Below, one piece after another: positions 177 through 41,040 of a DNA stretch of 64,000 nt. Numbering within the stretch: the first letter of the stretch is position 1; each line of letters begins with the position of its first letter. The stretch spans positions 55,854 to 119,853 of the forward strand of contig CAZSSB010000003.1 of NCBI GenBank assembly GCA_964609245.1. The letters run 5' to 3'. This DNA comes from an uncultured Planctomycetales bacterium. Its GTDB lineage: Bacteria; 4484-113; JAFGCY01. Made by a program: the position numbers and the translations under genes. The notes beneath the pieces are model-generated. The model was given only the letters and a program-made list of their open reading frames with translations. It ran no database searches and was not told the DNA's origin.

Positions 177-343
177 CACTCGTCAGGTTGCGAAGATAGC
201 CCGAATAGTAGATAATGTATCGATGGCGCTCTCCTGCGCGCCCTGACGGCTAGAGAGCGACACGTTTAAGCTGGGTATAATAGGTCAACCTGTAGAGGAT
301 TGCTTTGGGGCAAGACGACAAAGTGTGTACCAGGAGGCTGGCT

Positions 344-3300
344 ATGTTTAGCAGGTCCAATTGGGTGTGGACCCCGCTTCTGCTCGCCGTGGTTCTGTTT
401 CTGGGAGCCTGCGGTGGTGGGGATGCCACGACGGCGCCTGTCCTTGGCCCGGCGTTCAACCTCTTCATCTCGACGGATCGAGAGGTAGGAGCCGCGCCGC
501 TGACGGTGACTTTCAACGCGGTGCCGTCCGGAGGGCACCTGCCGTACACCTACGCCTGGGACTTCAACGGCGATGACGTCGTTGACTCGAACGCGGCTCA
601 AGGCCAATACACCTATGAGGCCAGCACAGTCGCGACGGTGACCGTGACGGACGCCGAGAACCAGGTGGTGACGGCATCGCGAACGATCACGATTACCGGA
701 GACGCTGTCGTGAATCCCGGCGATCCTCTCGACGTGCGCTTCAACGCCATGCCGCAGGTGGGCAATGTGCCCTTCAACGTGCAGTTCACGGCGTACGTCA
801 CGGGTGGCAAGCAGCCATACAGCTACTCATGGGACTTCGAAGGCGACGGTGTCTACGATAGTTTCATCGAGAATCCGCTGTACACCTACGAGGAAGTGGG
901 GCAGGAGGTTGAGGGGAATCGCAACGTCTTCTATCCCGTGCTGCGGGTGCAGGACAACCGCGGGGTTGTCGGCACCAACTTCGATGACAAGGACAGCAAC
1001 GGCAGTCCGGACTTCAAGATCCAGATTAACGCTGCGCCGCCGCTGACGGGCGGGATGCAAGTCGCCGTCAACGCCAATCCGTTGTCGGGGCAGGCACCAC
1101 TGACCGTTGAGTTCAGCGGAGCGGTAACCGGGGGATCCGGAAACTACGAGTTCGTGTGGAGTTTCGGCGACGGATCGTCCAGCGAGCCGCTGGCGAGTTC
1201 GATGGCCACTCACACCTACCTGCAGTCCGGCGTGTATCAAGCACGAGTGACAGTGCACGATACGACAACCGACGAGGAGGAGACCTCCTATCCGCTGACG
1301 ATCGAGGCCAGTCCTCAGCAGGAATTCACCATCAGCATCGACAGCGACGTCGTCGCTGGACAAGTGCCGTTTGTGGTCAACTTCGAAGCGTTGCCCGCCA
1401 ACGGCAAAGAGCCAATCCTCTACGAATGGGACGTATTCACAGACATGACGCCTGGGGAGGACGAGCCGACGATCGGCAATCCTCCGGCACTGAACGGAGC
1501 CGCCGTCGTAACACCGGATTACACGAACCGGGTTAATCCGACGATCCACTTCGGCAACACCGCGGGCACGGGAGCTGCGTACAGCTACGTGGCTCGCTGC
1601 GTGGCCCATGATGCCAACGGCAACGACGCCGTGAGCAACCTGATCCGGGTCGTGGCGTCGCCCAACACCGCGATGCCGTTCTACGAGTGTGAGCGGCCGC
1701 TGGTGATGGGCAGCACCATCTTCCCGGTCTTCGCCGGCACCGGCGAATCGGCCGACGCGATCTACCAGCCGTATCTGATACCCGTTCCGTGGCCGGCTCG
1801 TGCCAACGCGGCTACGACGGCGCATCCCACAGGTATCACCTACATCCTGGGCGGTGAGCACCTGGATGAGAACGGCAACTTCGAGAGCCTGGTTGACCGC
1901 GGGGACTCGGCCTACATGTTCGTGCCCGCCACCGGCGGCACCGGCACCGGCGAGGGAACGATCGGCAAGTTCAACACCTTGGCCGACGGTTACATCATCA
2001 AATTGAACGATGACACCGCCCCGGCATTCCCCAGTTCCCCGCAGACGCCATTCTCGCCTGAGTGGCGCAGCGACTTCGACGCAGGCGATACGGCTGTCCC
2101 GATTCCGGTGGAGGATCCGCCGACAGCCTCGCCGCCGCCGGTTGGATCGCAGCGCAGTGCGCCGTTCACGATCGTGGGTAGTGCCGCAGCAACGTACATC
2201 AACGAGCGTCCAGAGACCAACCCGGCGGGCGCGTATCCCGGCCCCGGTTACTGGGCCAGTGCCCTGCCGCCGATCGTCCTCGATCGGGATGTCCAGTTCC
2301 TGGATGTGGACAAGCTCTGGCCGTGGCCCGATCAGGCCTGTCACGGCTGGGGCTGCGATGCCGGCAGTTGAGGCACGATAGATGGCACGGGCGTGCCTGT
2401 AATCTACGTGTTTGGTGGGCGTACCGCCGCGACTACTCCGACCGACCTGGTCCAGAAGTACCTCGTCTATGGCTATGGCTCAGAGTATCTGGTGCCGTGG
2501 AGCCAGGACTTTGGCTTCCAGGTGACGTCGAATCAGACCGATATCTGGAGCCCGTATTTCCTGAGGCCTGACACGGATCAGTTCCCGGGTTCGGGGGGCA
2601 ACTTCGATCCACAGATCGATGATCGCCGTGAAGGTGGTTCCGGTGGTTCAGACAACGCGGTACTGCCCAGCCTGCCACAGCCGCTATACGGTCTGATGGC
2701 GGTGCGCGTGCAGAGCGGCGTCGACTCGCCGTCACCTGACTTCCCCTACGGTGGTTTCACTTACATCTACTTGTTCGGCGGCATCACGGCGTCCGGCGTT
2801 GCCTCCGACGAGATGTTGCGCTGGAGTCCGAGCGAAGGTGCGGAAACGACGGGCGGTGGCCAGGCGGAGAACCCGATCCAGATCGTCAGCCAGATGCCGC
2901 GGGCCCGGGCTTACGGCAAGGCCGTGTTTGTGCCGGCTCGTGACTACTTGATCGCGCTGGTGGGCGGCTTTGACGACAACGGCGTGCCGATTGATGAGAT
3001 TGACATCTTCACCTTCGACAGCATCTACAACCCGTCGGGTGGCGGCTGGTCCACCTTTGAGGGATCCCTGCCAGAGGCACTGGTGGCCTGCGGCGCGGGC
3101 TACAACGAGGGCTACCCCGGCGAGGACTGGGTGCTGACGATGGGTGGTTGGAACGGCGAGTTGTATTCGCACCGGATGTATTCCGCCCGTATCGAGAGCG
3201 CCGGCAACCAGGTGATCCGCGAGCTGGTGGTTACGGTGCCGCGCGCGTACGCGGGCAGCACGCAGTCGGGCTCGAACCCGCTGAGTACGCTTCGCGTGGA

Positions 3301-3400
3301 GAACATGCTCTCGCCCATTACGTTCAACCGCTACTTCGTACTGGCGGGCGTGGATGAGAATGGTGCCGAGTCGATTGTGGAGACGCTGAGTCTCCCATAG
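344..3400 (+). CDS. PKD-repeat / Kelch beta-propeller lipoprotein with an in-frame TGA at 2369-2371 (candidate selenocysteine, residue 676 of ~1018)
   Basis: AGGAGG RBS before ATG 344; lipobox FLGAC; several PKD motifs (YxWDFxGDG, VTVTDA). Track ORFs 305..2371 and 2393..3400 are in the same frame, separated only by TGA plus 7 sense codons. Six Kelch-type xxYxxGG blades span the TGA. Confidence 0.8.
2372..2412 (+). promoter_or_regulatory. SECIS-like hairpin directly 3' of the in-frame UGA
   Basis: CACG(2374-77)/CGTG(2407-10), TAGAT(2379-83)/ATCTA(2402-06), GGCAC(2384-88)/GTGCC(2393-97); apical loop GGGC starts with G, 17 nt after UGA. Confidence 0.65.
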
Positions 3401-3413
3401 GAGAAACATCAGG

Positions 3414-3447
3414 CCGGGTCCGGTGTCGGAACAGACACCGGACCCGG
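3414..3447 (+). terminator. Perfect 14-bp intergenic stem-loop (terminator or mRNA-stabilising hairpin)
   Basis: CCGGGTCCGGTGTC-ggaaca-GACACCGGACCCGG; no clear U-tract. Confidence 0.6.
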
Positions 3448-3493
3448 TGATTAGACTAGAGGGATGTTGGTGAAGTTACAGGAGGGTGCTGGA

Positions 3494-6100
3494 GTGAAAC
3501 GGACAGCATTGGTTCTGGGGTTGATCGGCGTGATCCTGCTGCTGGCTGCCTGCGGCGGCGGTAACGATGGCACACCTGATGCGGAGGTTGGCCCACTGGC
3601 GATTGAACTGCTCTGGGCGGAGCCCGCAACGGGTTCGAGCCCGTTGAGGGTTACGTTCACAGCGAATGTCACGGGAGGTCTAGCCCCGTACTATTACGCT
3701 TGGGACTATACCAATGACGGCTCGGTTGACAGATACCTCAACGGTGAATTTCGGCGGACGCTTAGCGTGGCCGAAGACTACTACTTCCGGGCGTCGGATC
3801 CTGGCGGCGTGTCCAGCTACGAGGCAGTCTTGACGGTGACCGACAGTGAGGGCACCATCGTCACCAGTGACCCGGTTGCGATCAACGTGCTTGGCAGCAG
3901 CGGCGTGACCCTCGATCCCGCTGGCACGGGGGCCATTTCGGACGAGGTGGTTGAGGAAGAGATAGACGGCGAGACTGTCTTGGTTTACGTCTACCGGACC
4001 GGAATGCCGGTCTACTTCAGGGCGCAGCCGGTGGGTGGCACCCCTCCCTACGAGTATCAGTGGGACTTCGATGACGACGGAGCGATTGACTCGACAGTCG
4101 CCAACCCGCAGTACATCTTCACCCACACGGGTGTCGGCGTGATGATAGCCGTCGTGAATCTGGAAGTAGTGGACGGGGCCGGCGAGCGGGTGATGTGGCG
4201 GACTTTCCTTGAGATCGAGGGGCCGGATTCCGGCGAAGAGCCCGAACCGCAGTTCGACATCGTCGTCAACTCAACGCCGCCCGCCGATTCCGAGGGCGTG
4301 ATCACAGTCAAATTCGACCCAACCGAGGCTACGGATACGGTGCCCGCGGAGCCCGAGATTGACCTGGCGGTCATCGTGGATCCGTCCGGCGGAGGGATTC
4401 CGCCGTTCGAGTATTACTGGGACTTCGAGAACGATGGCGCATTGGACAGCCAGGCGCTGTCGCCGACGATCCCGTATTACGACAGCAGCCGCAAGATCCT
4501 GATTAACCCCTACTTCCACCAGGAAAGCTCCAAGACGTTCACCCTGCGCTGCATGGTGCTGGATAGCAGCGGCCAGCTGCAGGAAGAGACGCGTACGATC
4601 CTGGCCATCAACGTGGCCAATCGCCCACCCAACGAGATGTCGGTTGAGACCACATATGGCATCGTCAACGAGGGCGGTGCGTTCCTCGATACTCCGCCGC
4701 TGCCCTACGCGGAGGTCGGGGATCGTGAAACGACCACTTACGCCAAGTTCTCGTGTGAGATTAGCGGCAGCACGGGCAATACGTTCGAGTTCCAGTTCGA
4801 TGCCAATGGCGACAACGTTCCGGAGATACCGACGGAGGGCACTGGCTGGTTTGCGATCGAGGGTAGTTCATTCGATGTATTGCAGCCATTCCAGGGCGCA
4901 GGCTATTTCCCGGCCAACGTGCAGATTCGGGCCCTGAACAGCGACCTCAACGTCGTCGATACGACCAGGATCGAACTGCCGATCAGCCTGGTGATCAGGA
5001 AGGACATCCAGCTCACCGAAGGCACACTCGATCCGCGCACGGATCACTGCATGGTCGCGACGTGGACAACCGAGCCCCACGCGTCTAACGGCGAGACCCT
5101 GACTTCGCGAGAGCTGATCATCGTCGGCGGTGCGCGCGGGACCACCCCGCTGAACACAGTTCAGCGCGTGCTGCAGACATATACGCCGCCCAACGAGGAG
5201 GGGCTGATCGAACGGCAGGTCTCGGCAGTGGTGACCGAGCGGCCGTCCATCAACCAGGAGCGACGCGGCAGCGTGATGTGGGCCAACAACGCCGGTTCGG
5301 GCGCGGGAGCCGAGATCCGCATCCACGGTGGCAAGAACGAGGTCAGCGGGATCATGGCGAGCAACGAGCTCTCGAACGGTGGCGGCGGCAACGTGCTCTG
5401 GCTGGTCCTGGCCGAGACGTTGATTCCTGAATACTACCCGCTGCGCGACGCCGCAGGCACGGTGGTGCCCGGACTGGGCTACGTACTAGCGGGTGGCGTC
5501 AACCAGCCGGCCGAGGAGGCCAATACCGTCGTATCGGGCAAAGTGCTGCTCTATGACTCGGTGTTCGACTCCTACGGCGAGATTGCCAACATGATCAAGC
5601 CACGGTACGATGCCAGCGTGGCCTACGTCAATGACCGCCTCTACATCATCGGCGGTCGTTCACCGAGTGGGCAGAGCGTGGCGACGGTTGAATCCTACGA
5701 TCCGAATTCAGGTCAGTGGGACACCTTTGCGCCTCCGATGATTGAGCGGCGCTCCGGCGCGGCGTGTCACGTCGTCGGTGGTCAGATCTACGTGATCGGC
5801 GGCGCGTTCTGGCCTGACAACGAATCAGATCGCATTCTCAAGACGACGGCCGAGGTGTTCAACCCGCAGACCGGAGTCTGGAGCTATACGCTGCCGCTCG
5901 CCAGCGGTGACGAGGCCGACGATCTGGCCTCGACGGCGGCTCCTGCCCCGGGCGGGGTGGCGACCGGTGGCGCGGTAGTCAATTCCATCGTGTGCTTCGG
6001 TGGTGAGCGGCCGGTGGCCGGTGGCGGTAGTGGCGGTGAGGTCAACAACCTCGTCGAGTTCATCTACTTCCACATCGTGGAGCTGCCGCCGGAAGTCTAG
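3494..6100 (+). CDS. PKD-repeat / Kelch-repeat lipoprotein (architecture like the upstream gene)
   Basis: GTG start after GGAGG; lipobox LLAAC; YEYQWDFDDDG and YYWDFENDG PKD motifs; canonical Kelch repeats (PRYDASVAYVNDRLYIIGG...VESYDP; RRSGAACHVVGGQIYVIGG...AEVFNP). Confidence 0.85.
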   Translation: MKRTALVLGLIGVILLLAACGGGNDGTPDAEVGPLAIELLWAEPATGSSPLRVTFTANVTGGLAPYYYAWDYTNDGSVDRYLNGEFRRTLSVAEDYYFRASDPGGVSSYEAVLTVTDSEGTIVTSDPVAINVLGSSGVTLDPAGTGAISDEVVEEEIDGETVLVYVYRTGMPVYFRAQPVGGTPPYEYQWDFDDDGAIDSTVANPQYIFTHTGVGVMIAVVNLEVVDGAGERVMWRTFLEIEGPDSGEEPEPQFDIVVNSTPPADSEGVITVKFDPTEATDTVPAEPEIDLAVIVDPSGGGIPPFEYYWDFENDGALDSQALSPTIPYYDSSRKILINPYFHQESSKTFTLRCMVLDSSGQLQEETRTILAINVANRPPNEMSVETTYGIVNEGGAFLDTPPLPYAEVGDRETTTYAKFSCEISGSTGNTFEFQFDANGDNVPEIPTEGTGWFAIEGSSFDVLQPFQGAGYFPANVQIRALNSDLNVVDTTRIELPISLVIRKDIQLTEGTLDPRTDHCMVATWTTEPHASNGETLTSRELIIVGGARGTTPLNTVQRVLQTYTPPNEEGLIERQVSAVVTERPSINQERRGSVMWANNAGSGAGAEIRIHGGKNEVSGIMASNELSNGGGGNVLWLVLAETLIPEYYPLRDAAGTVVPGLGYVLAGGVNQPAEEANTVVSGKVLLYDSVFDSYGEIANMIKPRYDASVAYVNDRLYIIGGRSPSGQSVATVESYDPNSGQWDTFAPPMIERRSGAACHVVGGQIYVIGGAFWPDNESDRILKTTAEVFNPQTGVWSYTLPLASGDEADDLASTAAPAPGGVATGGAVVNSIVCFGGERPVAGGGSGGEVNNLVEFIYFHIVELPPEV

Positions 6101-6224: not shown

Positions 6225-6845
6225 TCAGATGCTGGAAGCACCGACCGGCGGCAGCATTTCCTCCAGGCGGTGGAATTCGGGTGGGCGGGCGCCCAAGCGG
6301 TCCAGTTCCGTCAGCGTGCGGTAGCAGCGATCGTACAGGGCGGCCTTCAGCTCTACCTTGAGCTTGAGCGTCCAGATGCCGGGGTCGTTGGTTTCGTAGC
6401 AGACGGCGCGGGCGAGGTGCTGGGCTGCCGGCATGTAGGCGCCCTCACGTGCCGCCGTCAGGGCGTGATTGTAGAGCTCCTGGGCGCGCCGGCGGTCGCG
6501 GTGCCGTGCCTCGAGCTCCGCGCGGACTTCCGCCGCCACCACCGGGCTTAAGTCTGCCAGCAGAGCCTCGGCGCCCGGGGTGTTGCCTTCCAGCATCAGC
6601 AGGCGAGCCGTCAACGCGTTGAGTTCGGCGCTGTCTATCTCGCCCAGCTGTGGCAGCCGCTCAACGATCTGGCGCGCCGCCGGAAGTTCACCGCGGCTGA
6701 GGAGTTCGCTGGCGAGATTCAGGTAGTTTGCGGACAGCATCGCAAGGTCGCGGTAAGGTGACAGGTCCGCCCCGCAGCCGGGACACTGCACCGAGTCCTT
6801 GCTCAGCACCGTCCGGCACAGCGGGCAGGCGTCCAGTTCCTGCAC
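6225..6845 (-). CDS. Zinc-ribbon + TPR-like protein
   Basis: N-terminal CPLC-x10-CPGC; helical TPR-like segments (AQELYNHALTAAREGAY...); begins 3 nt after the Hsp70 stop. Confidence 0.75.
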   Translation of the reverse strand: MQELDACPLCRTVLSKDSVQCPGCGADLSPYRDLAMLSANYLNLASELLSRGELPAARQIVERLPQLGEIDSAELNALTARLLMLEGNTPGAEALLADLSPVVAAEVRAELEARHRDRRRAQELYNHALTAAREGAYMPAAQHLARAVCYETNDPGIWTLKLKVELKAALYDRCYRTLTELDRLGARPPEFHRLEEMLPPVGASSI

Positions 6846-6848
6846 GAT

Positions 6849-8594
6849 CTAGAGTCCCCAGTCTGACAGGTAGTTTCCAACCTTGTCGATAAGCTTCTCG
6901 AGCCCTTCCTCGTCTTCTTCCTTGATCGAGGCTTCCAGCTCTTCCATCATCGAGCGCAGCATCCCCAGCTGCAATTCGTCCATCTTCTTGGCGCCGTCGG
7001 CCGCCTGCTTCTCCAGCGTCTTGGCGCGTTCATAGACGCCCTGAGCTTCGAACAGCGCCTTGCCCTTCTCACGCTGCGCGATCAGCATGCCGCTCATCTG
7101 GGAGACGTCGCGCTCCGCCAGTGAGATGTCGTCCTCGGTCAGACGCGCCTTGGAGGCCTTGATGGTGATCCCCTGTCCAACTCCGGTCTGACGGTCGCGG
7201 GCCGTGACCTTCACGATACCGTTGACGTCGTAGTCGAAGCTGACCTCGACGAGTGATTCGCCGGCGCCGCCGTAGGTGATGCCGCTGAGCACGAACTCGC
7301 CGAGGCTGGCGTTCTCCGTGGCCGCCATGCTCTCGCCCTGAAGCACGTGAATCAGCGCCTCTGTCTGCCCGTCGATCGTGGTCTTGTACAGCTGCTTGCG
7401 TGAGCACGGGACGCTGGTGTTGCGCGGGATGATCGGGCTGAACTTGCCGCCCTCGGTTTCGATGCCCAGCGTAAACGGCGCAACGTCGACTACGACGAGC
7501 TCGTCCAGCTTGCCGCGCTTGATTCCGGCCTGAATGCTGGCCCCCAGCGCCACGCACTCCTCCGGGTTGATGTCGTGGTACGGTTCCTTGTTGGTGATGT
7601 TCTTCACCAACCGCTGCACGGCCGGCGTGCGGGTCATACCGCCGACCAGGATGACGGCGTCGAGATTGTCCGGATCCATATTGGCGTCGGACAGCGCCAG
7701 CTCCATCGGCTGCAGCGTCTGGTCAATCAGGTCCTGGACCAGGTCCTCGTACTTGGCGCGCGTGAGCGTCTCGTTGAGGTGCAGCGGTTCGTCGCCGCCG
7801 GTGTAGATGAACGGCAGATTGATGTTGGTCTCCAGCAGCGATGACAGGTCGATCTTGGCGTTCTCGGCAGCCTCCTTGAGCCGCTGCATGATCGCGCGCT
7901 GCTGGCTGATGTCGGAGATCGTGCGCAGATCGACCTTCTCCTTCTCCTTGAAGCGCTCGATCAGCCACTCCACCACGCGGTAGTCGAAGTCGTCGCCGCC
8001 GAGGTTGTTGTTGCCGGTGGTGGCGAGCACTTTGAACGCGCCCTCGACCAGCCGGATCACACTGACATCGAAGGTCCCGCCGCCCAGGTCGTAAACCATG
8101 ATCGTGCGGCTCTCGCCCTTGTCGAAGCCGTAGACCAGCGCCGCGGCGGTGGGCTCGTTGATGATCCGCTCCACCTTGAAACCGGCGACTTCACCGGCGT
8201 CCTTGGTTGCCTGCCGCTGGGAGTCCGTGAAGTAGGCCGGGACCGTGATGATCGCCTCGTCGACGATGTCGTTAAGGTAGGTTTCGGCGTCGAGCTTGAG
8301 CTTCTTGAGAATGACGGCGCTGATCTCCTGGGGACTGAATTCCTTGTCCCCAACGGTAATGCGCCGGTCGGTACCCATCAGCCGCTTGACGCTGGTGATG
8401 GTACGCTCGGGATTGGCCACCGCCTGGTTCTTGGCGACCTCGCCGACCAGCAGCTCACCGGTCTCCGTAAAGCCGACCACCGACGGAGTGACGAACTTGC
8501 CCCGCTCATTGGGGATTAGCGTCGGCTGGCCGTCGATGATGGCGGCAACCAGTGAATTGGTCGTGCCCAGGTCAATTCCAACAATCTGGCCCAT
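6849..8594 (-). CDS. dnaK: Hsp70/DnaK-family chaperone with a divergent substrate-binding domain
   Basis: GIDLGTTNS, TVPAYF, INEPTAAAL, YDLGGGTFDVS, LGGDDFD, LVGGMTRTP motifs; 581 aa, no acidic DnaK tail. Confidence 0.9.
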   Translation of the reverse strand: MGQIVGIDLGTTNSLVAAIIDGQPTLIPNERGKFVTPSVVGFTETGELLVGEVAKNQAVANPERTITSVKRLMGTDRRITVGDKEFSPQEISAVILKKLKLDAETYLNDIVDEAIITVPAYFTDSQRQATKDAGEVAGFKVERIINEPTAAALVYGFDKGESRTIMVYDLGGGTFDVSVIRLVEGAFKVLATTGNNNLGGDDFDYRVVEWLIERFKEKEKVDLRTISDISQQRAIMQRLKEAAENAKIDLSSLLETNINLPFIYTGGDEPLHLNETLTRAKYEDLVQDLIDQTLQPMELALSDANMDPDNLDAVILVGGMTRTPAVQRLVKNITNKEPYHDINPEECVALGASIQAGIKRGKLDELVVVDVAPFTLGIETEGGKFSPIIPRNTSVPCSRKQLYKTTIDGQTEALIHVLQGESMAATENASLGEFVLSGITYGGAGESLVEVSFDYDVNGIVKVTARDRQTGVGQGITIKASKARLTEDDISLAERDVSQMSGMLIAQREKGKALFEAQGVYERAKTLEKQAADGAKKMDELQLGMLRSMMEELEASIKEEDEEGLEKLIDKVGNYLSDWGL

Positions 8595-8677
8595 TGATTT
8601 ACTCCTTGTCTACCTCGCGTCCACCTACCAATGTACCTTCATCAATCAGCGATCAGGGCCGCCGACAGGCCGGCCGT

Positions 8678-9352
8678 TCACGCCTGTTCGTTCTTCACCA
8701 CCACTACCTGTGCCGTCCGCAGGATCTGCTCGCCGAGGCGGTAGCCCCTGAGCATCACCCGGCTCACCGTTCCGTCAGACATGTCGGTACGCACCTCGGT
8801 TCCCATCGCCAACTGCTCGTGGGGATCGAAGGCGTCGCCGGGCTTGACCTCCAACTGTGTCAGGCCGTGGCGCGCCAGCGTCTCACGTGCCAGGTGATAC
8901 AGGGAATCCAGCCCGGTCCGCACCCCTTCGCTGATTGCCCCGGGTTGCGACTGGGCCAACTCGAATACGCGATCCAGCGTGTCGAGCACCAGCAACAGGT
9001 CTTTCAACAAGCGCCTGACGCGGCCTTCCTCCTCCGCTTGCGACGGCAAGTCGGCCAGAGGCTTAAGCCGCGCTTCAACACTGCGCAATCCATCCGCCAC
9101 GCGATCCAGTCCGACCGCCTCGATGGCCGGCAGACGCAGTTCCTCAACACCACGCCGGAGCCGCGACAACTCGTTACGCAGCTTGCCGATGTCGGCCGTC
9201 AGAGCGCTCAGATTCGCCCACGCTTCCGTGGACAGGTCAGCTGGCGGGGCCTCGCCCGCCGCTTCGAAGTAGAGATTATAGTAATGCTCAGATGCGAAGT
9301 CAATTTGCGTGACCAGCTGCGCGAGCGCTTCATCTGTTGATGCCAGTCTCAC
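8678..9352 (-). CDS. grpE: Nucleotide exchange factor GrpE
   Basis: LLKDLLLVLDTLDR, GDAFDPHEQLAM, VMLRGYRLGEQILRTAQVVV; directly upstream of Hsp70. Confidence 0.9.
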   Translation of the reverse strand: MRLASTDEALAQLVTQIDFASEHYYNLYFEAAGEAPPADLSTEAWANLSALTADIGKLRNELSRLRRGVEELRLPAIEAVGLDRVADGLRSVEARLKPLADLPSQAEEEGRVRRLLKDLLLVLDTLDRVFELAQSQPGAISEGVRTGLDSLYHLARETLARHGLTQLEVKPGDAFDPHEQLAMGTEVRTDMSDGTVSRVMLRGYRLGEQILRTAQVVVVKNEQA

Positions 9353-12300
9353 AGAATCGTCCAGTCCGGAATCTTGAAGTTGATCCTGAGCAGGTCGGCC
9401 AATGGCTCAACCAGCTCTTGTTCATCTGCCTTGGCCGGCTCCAGCTGCTGGAAATCCGGTGGTGGCACGCTGTCGGGCAGCTGCAGCTGCTCGAAACTGA
9501 TGCCGCCGTCGCGTGACAGCCGCGTCAGACGTTGACGCACCGCCGGCACTTCGGTGGGGTTGAACACGAACAGATCGATCAGTTCGCGCCGCGCAGGATC
9601 GGCAAACAGGTTACTGTAGGACTCCTCGACCAGCATGAAGTCGTCCGCGTGCCGCTCGGGGTTGAAGATCTTGATCAACCTGAAGTACTCGTTCTCGATC
9701 TGCTGTTGGGTTGCACGCTTGTCCAGGCTCAGAATCCAGTAGAACTGGTTGGCCTTCTGGTAGTAGTCGATAATGTCCTCGGCGCGCACCTTGGTCAGAT
9801 CGAAGTCACCACGCCCCTTGGTCAGCGCCAGGGTGTTCATTGCGCGTTCCAGATGGCTGATCGATGACTGCAGTTCGTTGTAGCGCTCGCGGTCGGTACG
9901 GCTGGCTTCCTGCCACAGCAGCGCCAGTCGGGTGAACTGCCTCGACGCCTCGTCATAGTCATCGAGCAACAGGTTCACGATCCCGTAGTTCTGGAGGATG
10001 CGCGGGTTATCCGGGTCGAAGCCCAGTGCCTTCTTCCATTCCTCACGCGCCAGTTTGTTCTGATCCTTGCGCGCCAGCTGGTAGGCATTGAGGTCCAGGG
10101 TGGAGGCGTACAGCACGGGCAGGTCCGCGTTGCCCTCGTCGAGTTGACGCAGGTGATCCCAGGTCTGCATCGCCTCCGGGGCGTAGCCGGCGCTGAGGAA
10201 GGCCAGTCCGATCTCAGTGAACTGCCGGATCTTCATCTCGGGTGATCCGGGTCCATCGCCGACGAGGCGGGAGAGTTCCAGCCAGTTGTGAACGGCGAGA
10301 TCGCGTTTGTCCATCCGGGCGTAGGCTTGGCCAAGGTACCAGTGAACCTGGGGTGTAGCGCCCTCCCCACGGATCATCTCCTCGAGCTGCTGAGCCGAGC
10401 GCTTAAACTGGCCGTCGTGGATCAGCAGCGCTGCCAGCAGCAACTTGTCAACGCCCTCGGGGAACTGCACTGGTTCCCACAACTGCCCGTCCACGGCGTC
10501 CTGATCGGCCAGGAAGCAGGAAACCAGCCGCGGGAAGTTCTCGGCCAGCAGGTTGCCGCGGCGCGCGAGGTCCAGAAACACCCGCCAGGCCTTCTCCGGC
10601 TGCTGGTTGGCCAGGTAGGCGTAGGCATGGGAACGCTCCAGCTGCGGATCCTCGTCGGTCCAGGTGATGTCCCGGTAGTAGATAATCGCCTTGGCGTATT
10701 CCTTGAGCCGGTGGTATGCATAGGCCAGGTAGATCTTGGTGCGGGTGCGCTTGGGAAGAATGCGGTGCGCGACCTCCAGAATCCGCGCCGCACGCTCCAG
10801 TTGACCGCCGAAGAACGCCTGTTCGCCATAGAAACTGAGCAACTCGACGATGACCTGCCTCAGCAGGCGGTGATTGCGGTTGACTTCGACCGCTCGGGTG
10901 AACAGCGGCAGTGCTTCGGCAAGCTCATCATTTTGCAGCTGCTCGCGAGCCAGCAGGAAGAGCGACAGGCTGAAGAACAGCTGCTCTGCACGACCGTTCG
11001 GGTTGTGGCGATGAATCTCTTCCAGGTGCTGGCGCGCCTCTTCCAGCCGTCCCAGCTTCATCAGCACGATCCCGCGTTCCAGCTGCAGCCATCGCTGGAA
11101 GCGCGCAACGTCCTCGCCGTCGGTGATTCCGCTGTAGACCTCGAGGCTGTCGTCCAGCTTGTCCTGGAGTTCCAGGTTGATGGCGCTGCGCAGGTCAAGC
11201 AGGAAGGATGGAATCTCGCCGTCACGCGGCAGCTCCGCCAGAATCTTGCCGGCGCGTCCGGGATCGCCCAGCTGCTGGTGGGCCGCGGCCTCCCAGTACC
11301 GGCGCCGGATTGCCATTTCTGGGGCGTCCAGCGCGGCCAGCTGCTCCAGGCTGCGATCGGCGCGATCTTCGAGCAGGTGGATCTTGGCCAGCCGGTAGCG
11401 GATCTCGTCGGTAGGCGACAGCTCATAGCTGGTCTCGAACGCGCGCGCGGCCTGTGGAAAGTTGTAGTGCTCAATGTAGAAGTCGCCGATCTCCTGGAGC
11501 AGCGACTCGCGGTCGTGCCGCTGAGTCAGCGCCACGAGTTGCGCGGCGTCCGCCTCGAAGCAGCGGACCGCCAGATTCAGTACGTTGACCGCCGGCTCTG
11601 GCTGCGAGAAGCAGTCCGCCATGAGCACGAACGCGATCTCGGCATCGGTGGAGAATTTCTGCAGCTCGAACAGCTTGCGGTAGACCCGCATTTCGATGCT
11701 GCCCGGTTCCGGCGGTGCTCCCCGCTCCTTGATGATGTCCGCCAGCAGCGTGACCAGCCGTGGATTGAGGTGCTCGGTCTCCTCGGTGCGCTTGAACAGC
11801 GCGAAGTAGGCCGCCTGAGCCTGTTCGCCGCGGCGTCCGGCCGCCAGGAAGCAGTTGGTCAGCGCTTCATCGTAGACCTCGGCCAGCGGCCCGCGTTCCG
11901 GCCGGCCCATTACGCTCAGGTACTGCAGTGTCTCCTCGTTGTAATCGTTGACCGCAACACGCATCTCGGCCAGCACGGTGGCCAACTCGCGCTTGACCTG
12001 CTCGTCGGCGATCGGGAAGGCGTGCCGGTAGATCTCCTCTGCGGCCTCATCGCGCCGGTCGGCGGCATGGTACGCCCGCGCCAGGATGGTGATCGCCAGC
12101 GGATCAGTCGGGGTGTCGATCAGCGCCTCTTCGTAGATCTTCTGCGCCTGATCGTCAACCCGCGTCAGGTTGGCGTAGTGGTGGGCCAGCACACCGTAGA
12201 TCCGGCGTTGCGGCCGGTCGGGCCAGGTGCTGAGGTAGCTCTCGTAGACCCGAACAGCGAAGTCATCCTCGCGGTCGTTGGCCAGGCAGTGCTCGGTCAG

Positions 12301-13332
12301 AATCAGGATTGCGCGCTTGGAGACCATCCTGAGCTCGAACGCCTTGGTCATCACCTCGATGGCCTCGTCGTCGAACTTATTAGCCTGGGCGAGGAACTCG
12401 CCGAGGAAGGCCAACAGGTCGCGGTCGCTGTAGCCTTGACGGTAGACCGCCAGCAGCAGCTCGCCGCGGTCGAGCAGTTCATTGGTGCTGCCGAGCACAA
12501 TGCCGGACAGCTGTTTAAGTGCCTCCTGCGACAGCTTCGCCTTTTCCAGCGCGCGCGTGATGTAGGGCACCGTGGCGGACGAGAAATCCTCCTGCTGGAT
12601 GTAGTACTCAGCCAGCAGTCGCAGCGCCGCCGGATTCTCGGAGGTCTCTACCGTGTCGCGATAGACTTCGGCGGCGAACTCGTCGGTTTCCTCATTCTCG
12701 ATCAGGCTTTCCAGCAGGACCGCGCGCAGGCGCCGATCGGCCTTGCGGTTGTGGTAGGCGTTCCGGTAGATCGCCAGAGCCTCGGCGTCGCTGCGGCTCT
12801 CACGCAGATAGCGGTCGGCCAGCATGCCCTGGCCTTCCTGCCAGAGCGGGAACGCCGTGGCAGTTTCGGTCAGGAACTTGAGCTCCTCGTCCGCCACATC
12901 CTCGCCGCGAGCCGCGATGATGTTCTTGGCGGCCGTGATCATCAGGCGCCGGTCCTTGGGACTGATCTCGACGGCCTGCTTGGCGAGGGCCAGCACTCGC
13001 GGCTCGATGGCTCCGCTGTCGATGAGCGCGGCGACGATTTGGGGTAGTTCCTTGGGGACCGCCTCTGCCAGCGACTCGGCCAGATCCAGTGCGGAGTCCT
13101 GGAGCCCGGCTGCGAACAGCCCATGGAACAGCCGTACACGCAACGAGTTGAGTTCTGACAGGTCCTCGGCGGAAACGTCCTCAGGCCGTTCCGTCCAGAG
13201 CTTACCCAGCAATTCGGCGGCGTCATCCAGCTTGTCGCCGTCCAGCAGTCGTGCGGCCTGCTTCAGCTTCGGCCCAAGCTTGCTTTTCGAGCCACCTAAT
13301 ATCTTGCCGAGAATCCCCATTGGTCTTCCCAA
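9349..13332 (-). CDS. Giant (~1320 aa) TPR/helical-repeat protein with a C-terminal J-like domain
   Basis: Many TPR-like repeats; C-terminus FYWILSLDKRATQQQIENEYFRLIKIFNPERHADDFMLVEESYSNL matches the J-domain pattern with NPE in place of HPD; overlaps grpE start by 4 nt. Start is TTG 13332 or ATG 13320. Confidence 0.8.
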   Translation of the reverse strand: MGRPMGILGKILGGSKSKLGPKLKQAARLLDGDKLDDAAELLGKLWTERPEDVSAEDLSELNSLRVRLFHGLFAAGLQDSALDLAESLAEAVPKELPQIVAALIDSGAIEPRVLALAKQAVEISPKDRRLMITAAKNIIAARGEDVADEELKFLTETATAFPLWQEGQGMLADRYLRESRSDAEALAIYRNAYHNRKADRRLRAVLLESLIENEETDEFAAEVYRDTVETSENPAALRLLAEYYIQQEDFSSATVPYITRALEKAKLSQEALKQLSGIVLGSTNELLDRGELLLAVYRQGYSDRDLLAFLGEFLAQANKFDDEAIEVMTKAFELRMVSKRAILILTEHCLANDREDDFAVRVYESYLSTWPDRPQRRIYGVLAHHYANLTRVDDQAQKIYEEALIDTPTDPLAITILARAYHAADRRDEAAEEIYRHAFPIADEQVKRELATVLAEMRVAVNDYNEETLQYLSVMGRPERGPLAEVYDEALTNCFLAAGRRGEQAQAAYFALFKRTEETEHLNPRLVTLLADIIKERGAPPEPGSIEMRVYRKLFELQKFSTDAEIAFVLMADCFSQPEPAVNVLNLAVRCFEADAAQLVALTQRHDRESLLQEIGDFYIEHYNFPQAARAFETSYELSPTDEIRYRLAKIHLLEDRADRSLEQLAALDAPEMAIRRRYWEAAAHQQLGDPGRAGKILAELPRDGEIPSFLLDLRSAINLELQDKLDDSLEVYSGITDGEDVARFQRWLQLERGIVLMKLGRLEEARQHLEEIHRHNPNGRAEQLFFSLSLFLLAREQLQNDELAEALPLFTRAVEVNRNHRLLRQVIVELLSFYGEQAFFGGQLERAARILEVAHRILPKRTRTKIYLAYAYHRLKEYAKAIIYYRDITWTDEDPQLERSHAYAYLANQQPEKAWRVFLDLARRGNLLAENFPRLVSCFLADQDAVDGQLWEPVQFPEGVDKLLLAALLIHDGQFKRSAQQLEEMIRGEGATPQVHWYLGQAYARMDKRDLAVHNWLELSRLVGDGPGSPEMKIRQFTEIGLAFLSAGYAPEAMQTWDHLRQLDEGNADLPVLYASTLDLNAYQLARKDQNKLAREEWKKALGFDPDNPRILQNYGIVNLLLDDYDEASRQFTRLALLWQEASRTDRERYNELQSSISHLERAMNTLALTKGRGDFDLTKVRAEDIIDYYQKANQFYWILSLDKRATQQQIENEYFRLIKIFNPERHADDFMLVEESYSNLFADPARRELIDLFVFNPTEVPAVRQRLTRLSRDGGISFEQLQLPDSVPPPDFQQLEPAKADEQELVEPLADLLRINFKIPDWTIL

Positions 13333-13390
13333 ACCAATATTATACAGTCGAGTCGGGCTGCTGGCGCTCGAGGTCCGTGCGCAGAGTCAG

Positions 13391-14518
13391 TTACTGCTGT
13401 CGGCCGTTGAGCAGCTGATACAGGAAGTGACCGGACTTCTGGCTGGCTGCGACGTCTTCCTCACGCAGCTCCTTGAGCAATTCGCGCTGGCGCTTGCTCA
13501 GGCGTTGCGGCACTGCGACCACGACGCGCACGTGCAGTTCGCCGCGCCCGCCGCGTCTGAGCCGCGGCAGTCCGTGTCCGCGCAGCTGGAACACGTGATG
13601 ACTGCGCGTGCCGGCCGGAATCCTGAGCTGCTCCTCGCCCGTCAGGGTCGGCACGCTGACTGTGGCACCGAGGACCAGATCGGCGTAATGCACCGGCAGT
13701 TCCACGTACAGCGAGTCGCCCTCGCGGTGGAACTGCTTGTGAGTCTCCACCGAGACCTGGACCAGCAGACTGCCTGCCGGCGCTCCTCCGCGTCCGCTGT
13801 GGCCCTGGCCGCTGACCCGGATGATGTTGCCGTCGTCGATGCCGGCCGGAATCGTGATCTCGATGGTGCGCTGACGCTCGGTGAATCCCGTGCCACGGCA
13901 GGCCTTGCAGGGGTCAGTGATCGTGTAGCCCGCGCCGCGGCAGGCCGGGCACGTGGTGGTGGTCTGCATCCGTCCCAGCAGGGTGTCTCGCACCTGGATG
14001 ACCACGCCGCGGCCGCCACAGGTCTCGCAGTCCACGGGCTGTGTGCCGGGCTCCGCCCGCGATCCCCCGCAGCTCTCGCAGGTCTCCCGGCGCTGAACCT
14101 GCAGTTCAACGTCCTTGTCTTCCAGGACTTCCTCCAGGCGCAGGTGCACCGCCCGGTGGATATCGGCGCCCGGTTCGTATTTGCGGGGTCGTCCCGGTGC
14201 TGCGGCCCCGGAGAAACCGCCGCCGAAGAAGAAGTCGAAGATATCGTTGATGCTGCCGAAGCCCATGCCACCAAACGGATCACCGCCGGTGGGACCCCCG
14301 GTGGTGCCGAACTGGTCGTATTGCTGGCGCTTCCGGGGATCGGACAGCACCTCGTGCGCCAGGTTGATCTCCTTGAAGCGCTCGTCGGCCTGCGGATCGT
14401 CGCTGACGTCCGGGTGGTGCTGGCGGGCCAGCTTGCGGTAGGCGCGCTTGATGTCGTCCGGGCTGGCGTTGCGCGGTACGCCCAGGATCTCGTACAGGTC
14501 CACCTTGCTGGCCGGCAT
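13391..14518 (-). CDS. dnaJ: Chaperone DnaJ
   Basis: ATG 14518 overlaps the hrcA stop (TGATG); J-domain with HHPD, G/F region, four CxxCxGxG motifs, C-terminal domain. Confidence 0.97.
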   Translation of the reverse strand: MPASKVDLYEILGVPRNASPDDIKRAYRKLARQHHPDVSDDPQADERFKEINLAHEVLSDPRKRQQYDQFGTTGGPTGGDPFGGMGFGSINDIFDFFFGGGFSGAAAPGRPRKYEPGADIHRAVHLRLEEVLEDKDVELQVQRRETCESCGGSRAEPGTQPVDCETCGGRGVVIQVRDTLLGRMQTTTTCPACRGAGYTITDPCKACRGTGFTERQRTIEITIPAGIDDGNIIRVSGQGHSGRGGAPAGSLLVQVSVETHKQFHREGDSLYVELPVHYADLVLGATVSVPTLTGEEQLRIPAGTRSHHVFQLRGHGLPRLRRGGRGELHVRVVVAVPQRLSKRQRELLKELREEDVAASQKSGHFLYQLLNGRQQ

Positions 14519-15585
14519 CAGCTGGTACCCTCGTCCTCGGCAATCTCGCGCAGCGTCTGCGCGACGACCTCGCCGATCGCCTTGACCCAGGGCAGGGTGC
14601 GAGCGTAGAACAGGCGAGTGGGACCGAGCACGCCCACGGTGCCCTCGCCGCTGCTGGGCAGGCTGTAGCGCGACAGCACCAGGCTGCACTCGTGGAGGTC
14701 CGGATCGAGGTTCTCACTGCCGATGATCGTCTGTACTTCGCGTTGGCTGAGCTGCTGATGCACCGTCCGCACGAAACGGTCGCGGTCCTGCAGGACGTTG
14801 ATGACGTTGCTGAGCCGGTCGACGCTGGAGAATTCCGGTTCCAGCGCCAGCTTCAGCGCATTGCCGAACAGCACCCGTTCTCCGCTGCCCGCCAGGCTGA
14901 GGAAGAACTCCTGGATCGCGTCCAGCACTTTCTCGGGAACCGCGACGGTGTCCTCGATCAGGCGTCGCAGCTCGTCGTAGTCAACCTCGATTACGCTGCG
15001 CTCGCGCAGGTAGTTGTTGAGCCGCTCCGTCAGCTGGCCCAACTCGAGTTCGCGGATCGGCACATCGAACGTCAGCCGCCGGCTCTGCATCGCGCCGGCG
15101 CCGGTGACCAGCACCACCAGCAACTCGTGTGTGTCGACTTCAACGAAGTTGATGCTCTTGATGTCCAGCGCCGAGGGAACGGGCAGGCTGACCCAGGCGA
15201 CGTAGCCGGTCATCTCGGTCAGCAGGTCCAGGGTGCCTTCCAGCAGCGCCTCGATCTCGCGTCCCAGCTCACGGTAGACCTGGGAGACGCGCGCCCGCCG
15301 GCCGATAGTATCGGCCAGGCTGTGCACCAGTTCCTCGACCAGGAACCGGTAGGCCTGATCGGTCGGGATGCGCCCGCCGGAGGTGTGCGGCTGCCGCAGG
15401 TACCCCTGTTCCTCCAGCGCGACAAGCTCGTGACGTACGGTGGCCGGACTGACGTGCACTTCGTCGGCGACCACGTTGCTGGACACGGGATGCACCTGGC
15501 GCACGTAGTGGTTGATCACCTGACGCAGAATCTCCCGCTTGCGCGGGCTCAGGCCATCCTCCAGTTCCTCAGGCAGCTTGCTCAC
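14518..15585 (-). CDS. hrcA: Heat-inducible transcription repressor HrcA
   Basis: RKREILRQVINHY...PVSS...VSPATVRHELVALEEQGYLRQPHTSGGRIPTDQAYR; GTVGVLGPTR. Confidence 0.97.
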   Translation of the reverse strand: MSKLPEELEDGLSPRKREILRQVINHYVRQVHPVSSNVVADEVHVSPATVRHELVALEEQGYLRQPHTSGGRIPTDQAYRFLVEELVHSLADTIGRRARVSQVYRELGREIEALLEGTLDLLTEMTGYVAWVSLPVPSALDIKSINFVEVDTHELLVVLVTGAGAMQSRRLTFDVPIRELELGQLTERLNNYLRERSVIEVDYDELRRLIEDTVAVPEKVLDAIQEFFLSLAGSGERVLFGNALKLALEPEFSSVDRLSNVINVLQDRDRFVRTVHQQLSQREVQTIIGSENLDPDLHECSLVLSRYSLPSSGEGTVGVLGPTRLFYARTLPWVKAIGEVVAQTLREIAEDEGTS

Positions 15586-17276: not shown

Positions 17277-18563
17277 ATGTCGATGCTGAAGGACAAGCTC
17301 GCCGCTCAGATTCCGGGCATTCGCGCGGACCTAAAGGAGCTCGGTAAGAACTACGGCGATGTCAAGATCTCGGATGTGTCGGTGGCCCAGGCCTATGGCG
17401 GCATGCGCGGCGTCAAGGGCATGATCTGCGACACCTCCGTGGTGGAGCCGGACAAGGGCCTGATCATCCGGGGGATTCCGATCCTGGAGATCAAGGACAA
17501 GCTGCCCGAGGAGATCTTCTGGCTGCTGATCACCGGGGAACTGCCCAGCGAGGCTGAGCTCAAGTCGCTGCAGGACGAGTTCCGGGCCGCCGGCAAGGTG
17601 CCGGACTACGTCTGGAAAGTACTGGAGGCGATGCCGAAGGACAGCCACCCGATGACGATGCTGGACACCGCGATCCTGGTGATGCAGGCTGAGTCGAAGT
17701 TCGCGGCGCGCTATCACGAGATGGCCAAGACCGACTACTGGGAGGCGGCGCTGGAAGACGCAATCGCGATCCTGGGCACGATTCCGGTAGTGGCGGCCGG
17801 CATGTATCGGATGCGCTACGACAAGGGCGCGCGGATCGAACCCAATCCGGACCTGGACTGGGCAGCCAACTACGTGCACATGCTGGGTCTCGAGGAGACG
17901 CCGGACTGCTACGACATGATGCGGCTCTACCTCACCCTGCATACCGACCACGAGGGCGGCAACGTCAGCGCCAACACCTGCCACACCGTCGGCAGCGCAC
18001 TCAGCGATCCATACTACTCGGTCAGCGCGGGTCTGAACGGTCTGGCCGGCCCACTGCACGGCCTGGCCAACCAGGAGTGCCTGGGCTTCGTGATCAAGCT
18101 GCGCGACCAGTTCGGCGGCGTGATGAGCGAGGAAGAGCTGACCAAGGCCTGCTGGGATCTGCTCAACGCTGGCCAGGTGGTGCCGGGCTACGGCCACGCC
18201 GTGCTGCGCGTGCCCGATCCCCGCTTTGTCGCCTTCCACGGCTTCGGCAAGGAACACTGCGCCGACGACGATATCTACAAGATCGTCGACCTGCTGTATC
18301 AGGTGGCGCCCAAGGTGCTCAAGGAGCACGGCAAGGCCAAGAACCCGTGGCCGAACGTCGATGCCGGCAGCGGCGCGCTGCTCTATCACTACGGTCTGAC
18401 CGAGTTCCCGTACTACACGGTGCTCTTCAGCGTCAGCCGCGCGATGGGTATGCTCAGCCAGCTGGTGATCAACCGCGCGATCGGCACCTCGATCACGCGG
18501 CCCAAGAGCGTCAGCACGGAGTGGATCAAGAAGACCGTCGGCGCCACGGCGGCGGCCGGCTAG
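17277..18563 (+). CDS. gltA: Citrate (Si)-synthase, eukaryotic/mitochondrial type
   Basis: YGGMRG, DHEGGNVSA, GLAGPLHGLANQE, VVPGYGHAVLR, PWPNVDA motifs. Confidence 0.95.
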   Translation: MSMLKDKLAAQIPGIRADLKELGKNYGDVKISDVSVAQAYGGMRGVKGMICDTSVVEPDKGLIIRGIPILEIKDKLPEEIFWLLITGELPSEAELKSLQDEFRAAGKVPDYVWKVLEAMPKDSHPMTMLDTAILVMQAESKFAARYHEMAKTDYWEAALEDAIAILGTIPVVAAGMYRMRYDKGARIEPNPDLDWAANYVHMLGLEETPDCYDMMRLYLTLHTDHEGGNVSANTCHTVGSALSDPYYSVSAGLNGLAGPLHGLANQECLGFVIKLRDQFGGVMSEEELTKACWDLLNAGQVVPGYGHAVLRVPDPRFVAFHGFGKEHCADDDIYKIVDLLYQVAPKVLKEHGKAKNPWPNVDAGSGALLYHYGLTEFPYYTVLFSVSRAMGMLSQLVINRAIGTSITRPKSVSTEWIKKTVGATAAAG

Positions 18564-18602
18564 CCAGCGCCGACGACCGACTGCGGCAACTTAGGAAAAA
18601 TC

Positions 18603-18630
18603 GCGGGGGAGGAGAGACTCCCTCCCCCGC
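18603..18630. terminator. Stem-loop after citrate synthase
   Basis: GCGGGGGAGG/CCTCCCCCGC 10-bp stem; A-run on the 5' side. Confidence 0.6.
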
Positions 18631-18676
18631 GTACCTCTGCGGTAGCGCGCCGCCAGTGCGCTATGCTACTGCGCGT

Positions 18677-19768: not shown

Positions 19769-19861
19769 GCCGCCGGGCTCAGGCTACAATGAACCGCAGC
19801 TGCCGCCGCCACGTCCAACTGGCGCGCGTGCAATCCTGCTAGGCAGCCAAAGGAGCTGGTT

Positions 19862-20338
19862 ATGGTGACATTCTTCAGGCGCATTCGATTCCAGCTGCTG
19901 ATCGCGGTGGCTTTCGTGCTGGGCTTCGGTTTCGCCGGCGCGCTCAGGCCCCTGCCGGCGACCGCCGGTATTGATCTCGGCGACATCCTGGAAGGCGCCG
20001 TCAAGATCGGCGGCGTCAAACTGGCGATCGACGAGTTCGGCGATGAACTCAACGACCTGATCAACAAGCTGCTGGACAACAATGATGCCAGCGTCGATGC
20101 CGCCACCAAGGTGGTGCCGATCATCTCGCTGATCGGCAACAAGCACATCGGCGCCGCGCAGGTGGTCGGGCCCGAGGACGCCGTGGAGAAGGTCGGCGCG
20201 GTCGTGCAGCTGGAAACCAGCTTCATGGACAAGCTGTTCCGCGTGCGCGCGATGGTGCCGATCGAGGGCGAAGATCCCGCCAAGCTGCACCGCGTCAAGG
20301 GCGTGGCAGTCAGCGCGATGATCGACATCAAGCTCTAG
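19862..20338 (+). CDS. Secreted/membrane-anchored hypothetical protein
   Basis: AAGGAG RBS; N-terminal hydrophobic signal ending LPATA; typical codon usage. Confidence 0.75.
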   Translation: MVTFFRRIRFQLLIAVAFVLGFGFAGALRPLPATAGIDLGDILEGAVKIGGVKLAIDEFGDELNDLINKLLDNNDASVDAATKVVPIISLIGNKHIGAAQVVGPEDAVEKVGAVVQLETSFMDKLFRVRAMVPIEGEDPAKLHRVKGVAVSAMIDIKL

Positions 20339-28859: not shown

Positions 28860-28868
28860 TACAACCCC

Positions 28869-31543: not shown

Positions 31544-31547
31544 AAGC

Positions 31548-40044: not shown

Positions 40045-41040
<996 letters not shown>

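Follow-up and report, generated by a model that had tools for sequence, protein, structure and literature searches.

A candidate selenoprotein gene encoding a PKD/Kelch lipoprotein in an uncultured Planctomycetales bacterium

Does the TGA that separates two open reading frames (ORFs) in a genome fragment of an uncultured Planctomycetales bacterium end a gene, or is it read as selenocysteine (Sec)? The fragment, a 64,000-nucleotide stretch of contig CAZSSB010000003.1 (assembly GCA_964609245.1) referred to here as the window, has a G+C content of 65%. Near its beginning, an ORF starting at 305 stops at a TGA at 2369-2371, beyond which the same frame stays open to a TAG at 3398-3400. An earlier note, made from the sequence alone, had joined the two ORFs into one gene for an exported PKD/Kelch selenoprotein with a hairpin resembling a selenocysteine insertion sequence (SECIS). 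This proposal was well supported by the conservation of the TGA, by equal selection on the two halves of the gene, by the pairing of Sec with cysteine and by the SECIS-like hairpin, and we consider it likely that TGA 2369-2371 is a Sec codon. The gene and its reading frame comprise the following features, all on the plus strand.

332..337, plus strand: Shine-Dalgarno sequence AGGAGG, 6 nt before ATG344, read from the sequence
344..3400, plus strand: proposed recoded coding sequence of 1018 codons, including one UGA (Sec676) and ending at TAG; prelipoprotein with PKD repeats and a six-bladed Kelch-type propeller
2339..2371, plus strand: C-x4-C-x4-U motif, with Cys666 (TGT, 2339-2341), His667, Cys671 (TGC, 2354-2356) and the proposed Sec676 (TGA, 2369-2371)
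2369..2371, plus strand: in-frame UGA, the proposed Sec676 codon; TGA in 11 orthologous lineages and TGT in locus L021 (protein P0039)

The likely true start of the first ORF is ATG344, and the frame is open for 342 codons beyond the TGA. By our own estimate, the chance of an open extension of this length past a stop codon is ~1.6e-4 at the base composition of the window. The G+C content of third codon positions is 0.78 on both sides of the TGA. The codon context, DQAC-HGWG-C-DAGS-[TGA]-GTIDGTGVPVIYVFGG, reads as originally given, and the residues right after the TGA are G-T-I-D-G-T-G-V-P-V-I-Y-V-F-G-G. The downstream ORF (2393..3400) had been described as lacking a ribosome-binding site and a signal peptide, in agreement with the absence of both a Shine-Dalgarno sequence before 2393 and a conserved start. 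When in-frame TGAs across the 64 kb were scanned for protein-coding composition over 60 stop-free codons on each side, only 2369-2371 had a coding signal on both sides, and no in-frame TGA passed the same scan in the related loci. A TGA at 19463 on the minus strand was also flagged, at a place with an antisense composition signature.

A sequencing or assembly error, or a genetic code in which TGA is a sense codon everywhere, would account for the interruption without any selenium, and nothing beyond the in-frame stop itself speaks for either. The same 3.1-kb gene with its TGA was found in four independent assemblies from different samples (L017-L020; three from ENA and one from Logan), two of them 100% identical to the window gene and two with one base difference each; one of these differences, T2383C, is synonymous and lies 14 nt from the TGA. 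All four were identical in the TGA and the sequence around it, and the TGA recurs in 11 lineages whose samples and sequencing centres differ. Assembly error was rejected on these grounds. Code reassignment was rejected as well, since TGA is an ordinary stop here, ending ~16 of the 43 well-supported window genes, including grpE, hrcA and rnfD, with no coding extension past the stop. We give artefact and altered code together next to no weight.

Is the interruption shared by orthologues? In what follows, WIN denotes the window's own locus, L-numbers denote fetched DNA loci and P-numbers denote homologous proteins. The family is small, with 36 clusters at 90% identity, and an exhaustive profile search of 1.84 billion cluster representatives returned 22 matches at E < 1e-10. 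Its members fell into two groups: full-length proteins of 950-1175 residues, of which homologues of 950-1014 residues align across the UGA junction, and pairs of ~680 + ~330 residues, the first of which stops exactly at ...WPDQ[AG]CHGWGCDAG[SG]. The fetched loci of the split type were syntenic (efp, the UGA gene, a PKD/Kelch paralogue, a tetratricopeptide repeat (TPR) gene and then dnaK-grpE), and the related metagenome-assembled genomes are labelled UBP7, "Planctomycetales bacterium" or "bacterium." TGA was present in frame at the same codon in 11 of 11 lineages (WIN, L001, L002/3, L004, L005, L006/7, L012, L013, L014, L024 and L025), and the interrupting stop was never TAA or TAG. The longer string WPDQ[AG]CHGWGCDAG[SG]-TGA was conserved in WIN, L001, L002/3, L006/7, L012 and L013, and also in P0018, P0027 and P0030.

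The gene might nonetheless be truly split or decaying, with an ancestral split and a 335-codon downstream ORF that is either made from an internal GTG or left untranslated. Gene callers do split it in every assembly, and most members outside the clade are uninterrupted, without a cysteine at this column. The downstream half has, however, been held as strictly as the upstream one. Pairwise synonymous divergence (dS) between the window and other lineages was saturated, at 1.0-2.9, and the ratio of nonsynonymous to synonymous divergence (dN/dS) was 0.10-0.31 upstream and 0.12-0.32 downstream of the TGA; both halves are, by this measure, under equal purifying selection. Between the TGA and any codon that could serve as a restart lie 7-8 codons whose protein sequence, GT[IV]DG[TA]G[VA]P, was conserved and can be aligned to G[LI]G[SV]P in homologues without an interruption. 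No restart codon was shared across loci: at codon +8, GTG is confined to loci that encode Val, and four loci have Ala there; codon +13 is GTC in L014, and no Shine-Dalgarno sequence was found for such a restart. A lone C-terminal piece would, moreover, have no signal peptide and five of six blades. The earlier note had counted consistent splitting of the homologues as a point that would tell against a selenoprotein, but this objection fails: the callers split the gene, yet always at TGA, in frame and with the linker conserved as protein. Because the in-frame stop is always TGA at exactly one codon, the linker is conserved, no restart is shared and dN/dS is equally low on both sides, the pattern is a signature of recoding rather than of a split gene, and we consider splitting or decay quite improbable.

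If the TGA is recoded, what would direct Sec insertion? A hairpin had been noted 3' of the UGA. Bases 2369-2413 fold at -18.3 kcal/mol (z = -3.5), with 1 of 200 shuffles as good, and the G-initial apical loop that had been described, GGGC, begins 17 nt after the UGA.

2371..2413, plus strand: full SECIS-like hairpin with three stems, of 7 bp (lower), 5 bp (middle) and 5 bp (apical), together with a bulged A and an internal loop of 4 nt
2384..2397, plus strand: apical stem-loop GGCAC-GGGC-GUGCC, the conserved core, starting 12 nt after the UGA with its loop 17 nt after it; presumed to be the SelB-binding part

Across the UGA-bearing loci the apical consensus is GGCRC-RGGY-GYGCC, with a loop of either GGGC or AGGU. 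Over 12 distinct sequences, all 60 cells of the five apical base pairs are paired. Among the compensatory pairs, A-U is replaced by G-C in four sequences, which demands a coordinated change of two residues from Thr...Val to Ala...Ala, and C-G is replaced by U-A in one, involving two synonymous third positions; there is one G-U wobble. The covariation score of the apical stem was reached by none of 500 shuffles, and sliding the 3' partner abolished pairing. The GG of the loop is invariant at positions 22-23 from the UGA, with constant spacing. Thus, the hairpin is conserved wherever the UGA is present, with compensatory changes, as would be required of a functional element of the kind first proposed.

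For comparison we used the bacterial SECIS (bSECIS) consensus, which is the Zhang and Gladyshev model as summarised in PMC13188914. That model asks for 3-9 nt in the loop, 4-16 bp in the upper stem, 16-37 nt between UGA and loop, a minimum free energy of at most -7.5 kcal/mol and a G at loop position 1 or 2, with G or U as the usual next base (PMC13188914, Fig. 2). The hairpin agrees with it in every respect, having a 4-nt loop, a 5-bp stem, a G at loop position 1 or 2 followed by G, a distance of 17 nt and a folding energy of -18.3 kcal/mol. In half of the orthologues the loop is A21-G22-G23-U24, counted from the U of the UGA, which we take to be the same register as the essential G23/U24 of the Escherichia coli fdhF SECIS. 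The arrangement is that of bacterial genes with an intragenic SECIS, of which fdhF is the prototype: an in-frame UGA, then a stem-loop within the coding region. As in other bacterial SECIS genes, a small G-rich apical loop lies 17 nt after the UGA and a cysteine homologue exists. Unlike the fdhF-type genes, this one belongs to an unrelated protein family, places Sec in a lineage-specific loop and has no similarity to the Rfam SECIS families.

Does the UGA column behave like a Sec position? The UGA-bearing orthologues fell into three subtypes. Subtype A, to which the window gene belongs, is C-x4-C-x4-U; subtype B is C-A-U (L005, L014, L024 and L025); and subtype C is U-A-U (L004), with two TGAs and one Ala codon between them. 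The first TGA of L004, at the -2 position, aligns with a Cys in L005, L014, L024 and L025, and the nearest relatives of L004, namely L024 and L025 (70% identical), have C-A-U there. At the UGA column itself, P0039, a 1031-residue protein encoded on the 2.4-Mb contig L021, has the cysteine codon TGT, in columns matched by an unaided MAFFT alignment: P0039 reads LWAWPDCPLEGWNINTAV-C-GSYTGSGAP and subtype B reads LWAWPDSAVEGWVRNTCA-U-GSVPGTGVP. In a neighbour-joining tree of the propeller part, P0039 was sister to a monophyletic Sec clade; in the full-length tree it was placed elsewhere, on a long branch. Its sister position is thus only moderately secure. Cysteine is paired with Sec in P0039/L021 (TGT) and, at -2, between L004 and its relatives; the distant homologues have other residues at the column. 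Every Sec/Cys loop variant has at least two nearby chalcogen residues: C-x4-C-x4-U, C-x-U, U-x-U and, in the cysteine form, C-x11-C.

The tandem TGAs of L004 (6666-6674, ET-TGA-GCT-TGA-GN) are both in frame, lie 3 nt apart upstream of a single hairpin and were found on one contig only. The two UGAs appear to be served by that one hairpin, and this form may represent two tandem Sec codons with one SECIS.

A second interrupted gene came to light when each window gene was extended through the neighbouring stops.

35851..~36640, minus strand (TGA at 36495-36493): second candidate selenoprotein gene, encoding a multi-pass membrane protein with no Pfam/NCBIfam family

It reads ...AFGIGCPGGG-[TGA]-GGPPRPWYGSP..., and the TGA is followed by a hairpin with the apical part GCCG-UGGUA-CGGC, which has a GGU loop. 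P0103, the only full-length homologue, has a Cys at the TGA column (AGGG-C-GAPTRPW), and L022 and L023, at 71-75% identity, keep both the TGA and the hairpin. Because two unrelated genes on one contig share the combination of TGA, Cys and hairpin, a working Sec system appears much more likely than two coincidences.

UGA is the leakiest bacterial stop codon, and the data must also be weighed against read-through without selenium, in which a near-cognate or suppressor tRNA (Trp, Cys or Arg) reads the UGA and the hairpin is a generic read-through stimulator. That no Sec machinery was found in the sequence examined speaks for this explanation, and a similar hairpin in some UGA-less homologues means that the element need not be a dedicated SECIS. 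The TGA/Cys columns of P0039 and the L004 relatives, on the other hand, fit Sec and not Trp or Arg; the GG at loop positions 22-23 and its spacing do not vary; and the second gene on the contig repeats the TGA/Cys/GGU-hairpin combination. Furthermore, we know of no established class of conserved, hairpin-stimulated UGA read-through of a cellular bacterial gene. We regard selenium-independent read-through as unlikely.

Several observations weigh against a Sec codon. No selA, selB, selD or tRNA-Sec was found in the 64 kb of the window or in the fetched loci (~250 kb), where sel genes were sought by a Pfam scan of 40 window genes and tRNA-Sec by ARAGORN on the window and 16 loci, too little sequence to conclude that tRNA-Sec is absent from the genome. 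The lower stem of the hairpin is clear in subtype A and L014 and less clear in L005 and L004. Apical pairs also form in homologues that have no UGA (5/5 in L015, 4/5 in L016, 4/5 in L021 and 3-4/5 in UBP7 genomes), and two of the five pairs follow automatically from Gly (GGN) and Pro (CCN) codons. Synonymous conservation over the hairpin is only mildly raised, with a proportion of synonymous differences of 0.53 where the median is 0.62, which places the hairpin at the gene's 11th percentile. No SECIS family was returned by Rfam scans of the whole window at gathering thresholds or of 2340-2460 at E up to 10, the sole match in the window being a chance one to a lncRNA; since bacterial SECIS elements are gene-specific, this null is uninformative. 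P0039 is the only homologue with Cys at the Sec column among the 1.84 billion cluster representatives, and the remaining homologues carry a different, Cys-free loop there. It follows from this loop that the Cys/Sec site is one clade's innovation and not the active site of the family; Sec lies outside any family-wide catalytic position, which is atypical for selenoproteins. Finally, the Sec-type locus L025 (1257-2143) has a frameshifted downstream half, as decay would predict.

Two of these points bear on further observations. In L025 the frame changes after ~170 residues of the downstream half, with the true C-terminus in the other frame, which reflects either a decaying copy or an assembly indel. 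Among the UGA-less homologues, the L015 element (~2988-3040) is GGGCU-GGGC-AGCCC, with its 5/5 pairs formed through Leu-CUG and Ser-AGC; those of L016 and L021 lie at ~1162-1214 and from P0039 codon 684, respectively. The hairpin may thus predate the Sec codon, the SECIS having grown out of structure in Gly-x-Gly-x-Pro codons. Given the weaker form in UGA-less homologues, the hairpin alone is less specific than it seems.

What protein would result from decoding the UGA as Sec? The proposed product has three parts.

344..412, plus strand: signal peptide of a lipoprotein, MFSRSNWVWTPLLLAVVLFLGA|C, whose lipobox is L-G-A-C; GGG comes after Cys23 (410-412); identified by inspection
431..1660, plus strand: about four PKD/Ig-like repeats, limits approximate; Pfam PKD matches and the repeated pattern PLxVxF...GG..PY.Y.WDF
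1676..3397, plus strand: Kelch-type beta-propeller spanning the UGA, start approximate; one blade motif upstream and five downstream

On inspection, the signal peptide conforms to the lipobox pattern [LVI][ASTVI][GAS]C, and [AGS][AGS]C-(G/S)GG is common to nearly all homologues. The Pfam matches to PKD (PF00801, 63.7 bits against a cut-off of 23.5) and PKD_4 (PF18911, 57.9 bits against 27) were best over residues 240-312, and the downstream half matched Kelch_4 at 36.3 bits (cut-off 21.6). The blade count previously given, based on hhhhGG motifs, was reproduced, with one motif upstream of the UGA (ITYILGG) and five downstream (VIYVFGG, YIYLFGG, LIALVGG, VLTMGG and FVLAGV). A PDB sequence search with the C-terminal profile gave marginal Kelch matches, at E = 0.14 or worse.

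The fold was examined in an AlphaFold2 model of the cysteine homologue P0039, which is not the window protein. The predicted local distance difference test score was ~90 in the propeller. The top Foldseek matches of the model were the six-bladed Kelch domains of KLHDC2, Keap1, K13 (PfK13) and RAG2, with a probability of 1.00; for KLHDC2, the E value was 1e-7 and the target-normalised TM-score ~0.65. KLHDC2-type alignments extended over ~570 columns. As this exceeds the 342 residues that follow the UGA, the propeller spans the UGA. The model thus favours the earlier suggestion that a six-bladed propeller would need both halves, a separate C-terminal piece having five blades and no signal peptide. 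It likewise places the UGA in a loop between two strands of one blade, since the corresponding Cys of P0039 is predicted to lie in a 62-residue excursion between strands 623-629 and 692-698.

These features suggest the following course of events. While the ribosome is at the UGA, SelB-GTP-Sec-tRNA(Sec) would bind the apical stem-loop and deliver Sec, and translation would proceed through the hairpin as far as TAG 3398-3400. The prelipoprotein would be exported via the Sec translocon, lipidated at Cys23 and displayed on the cell envelope as a four-PKD stalk bearing a six-bladed Kelch propeller. Sec676 would lie in the ~60-residue excursion of the blade that straddles the UGA, beside Cys666, His667 and Cys671. 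Because each loop variant has at least two chalcogen residues close together, the site would most likely serve as a redox-active centre, a selenenylsulfide or diselenide, at the surface of the propeller; this is the weakest step of the proposed mechanism. For subtype A, the C-H...C...U ligand set suggests a soft-metal site as an alternative. The conserved neighbourhood (efp, the paralogue and the dnaK operon) gave no functional lead.

A combined account can be put forward tentatively, at somewhat under an even chance of holding in all its parts. A surface Kelch lipoprotein of a UBP7-related lineage would have recently recruited Sec into a surface loop as an add-on redox or metal centre, without replacing an ancestral catalytic cysteine. 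The centre would have been remodelled three times, tandem UGAs would be decoded with one SECIS, and the hairpin would derive from latent structure in the Gly-x-Gly-x-Pro codons. The protein would then be an extracytoplasmic selenoprotein with a fold not typical of enzymes, caught while a selenoprotein and its SECIS are newly arising.

How does this gene compare with known selenoproteins? About 111 bacterial families have been catalogued, most of them cytoplasmic redox enzymes with a thioredoxin fold or similar (PMC13326102). The remark in the earlier note that known selenoproteins are mostly cytoplasmic stands insofar as an exported one is unusual; exported and outer-membrane selenoproteins have, however, already been predicted (PMC13188914). 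Those predicted to be extracytoplasmic include a TonB-dependent receptor (FCYXU), an MtrB/PioB barrel, an ExtKL multihaem cytochrome and DsbA/DsbG-like proteins (PMC13188914; PMC12013277). The product described here resembles them in having an export signal, a place of work outside the cytoplasm and a Cys near Sec, but none of the TonB receptor, MtrB/PioB, ExtKL or DsbA/DsbG-like proteins is a Kelch propeller, a PKD protein or a lipoprotein. Closely spaced pairs are also known: CxU occurs in UshA-like proteins and ferredoxin-thioredoxin reductase, UxxU in a putative mercuric-reductase-like metal-binding protein and UxxxxU in TsoB (PMC13188914). As in the CxU and UxxU selenoproteins, the close spacing of Cys and Sec, or of two Sec residues, points to a selenenylsulfide, a diselenide or a soft-metal site; unlike them, the present protein has another fold and location, and its partner arrangement varies within one orthologous group.

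The C-terminal fold of ~570 residues is that of six-bladed Kelch proteins such as KLHDC2, Keap1, PfK13, RAG2 and bacterial NanM/YjhT. It departs from these in its low sequence identity (~10-12%), its long propeller insertions and its fusion to PKD repeats and a lipoprotein signal. We know of no Kelch protein that contains Sec. In keeping with the earlier note, in which no PKD/Kelch Sec family was recognised, no Kelch, PKD, propeller or lipoprotein family appears in a 2026 review, in the text of the BSepDB paper (111 families), in deep-Sep or in a 2022 review. No family name in the selenoprotein table of PMC13188914 matched, and a scan of both halves and P0039 against NCBIfam release 20 gave no match to a selenoprotein model, with only sub-threshold matches of the PKD type. 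Thus, the mechanism is that of a standard bacterial Sec-UGA/SECIS gene, and the family is absent from current catalogues. Its unusual traits are a clade-specific Sec add-on in a binding-type fold and a partner arrangement that has been remodelled three times.

The UGA gene is followed by a paralogue (3464..6100, plus strand) that has no in-frame stop; its product, a lipoprotein of 878 residues, matches Kelch strongly and PKD weakly. Synteny of the two genes, downstream of efp, holds in every related locus, and the following element lies between them.

3414..3447, strand not assigned: 14-bp GC-rich perfect inverted repeat, called terminator-like for the minus strand; it probably terminates transcription or forms a hairpin that stabilises mRNA

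On the minus strand, a heat-shock cluster (6225..15585) comprises hrcA, dnaJ, a gene for a giant TPR protein (1327 residues, J domain at its C-terminus), grpE, dnaK and a gene for a small TPR protein. Conservation of the giant TPR-DnaJ protein extends to the related loci. The ~1.3 kb from citrate synthase to the next confident gene (18563..19862) contain only non-coding or antisense-like ORFs, with a G+C content above 0.85 at first codon positions. A complete Rnf-type ion-translocating ferredoxin:NAD+ oxidoreductase cluster on the minus strand (25763..32057; six subunit genes with RnfB-, C-, D-, G-, E- and A-type domains plus an RseC/MucC-like gene) suggests anaerobic or ferredoxin-based energy metabolism. 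Genes for a MoxR AAA+ ATPase, a DUF58 protein and a transglutaminase-like TgpA membrane protein stand in a row at 40045..44820 on the plus strand, followed by YdjC and a 1370-residue protein containing fn3.

What would a Sec codon at this site mean? The gene is mis-annotated as two genes across the public assemblies examined here. Where Sec insertion is inefficient or selenium scarce, translation would yield a 675-residue product with an incomplete propeller, and this truncation might make expression of the protein selenium-dependent. With its Sec-free, cysteine and three Sec subtypes and its partial hairpins, this small family would make it possible to test directly how a Sec codon arises together with its SECIS, and the U-A-U form, if real, whether one SECIS serves two UGAs 3 nt apart. 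The second candidate gene suggests that the lineage has an unexplored selenoproteome. If the proposed reading is true, Sec would also be used in a binding-type fold, displayed on the cell envelope in a lineage about which little is known.

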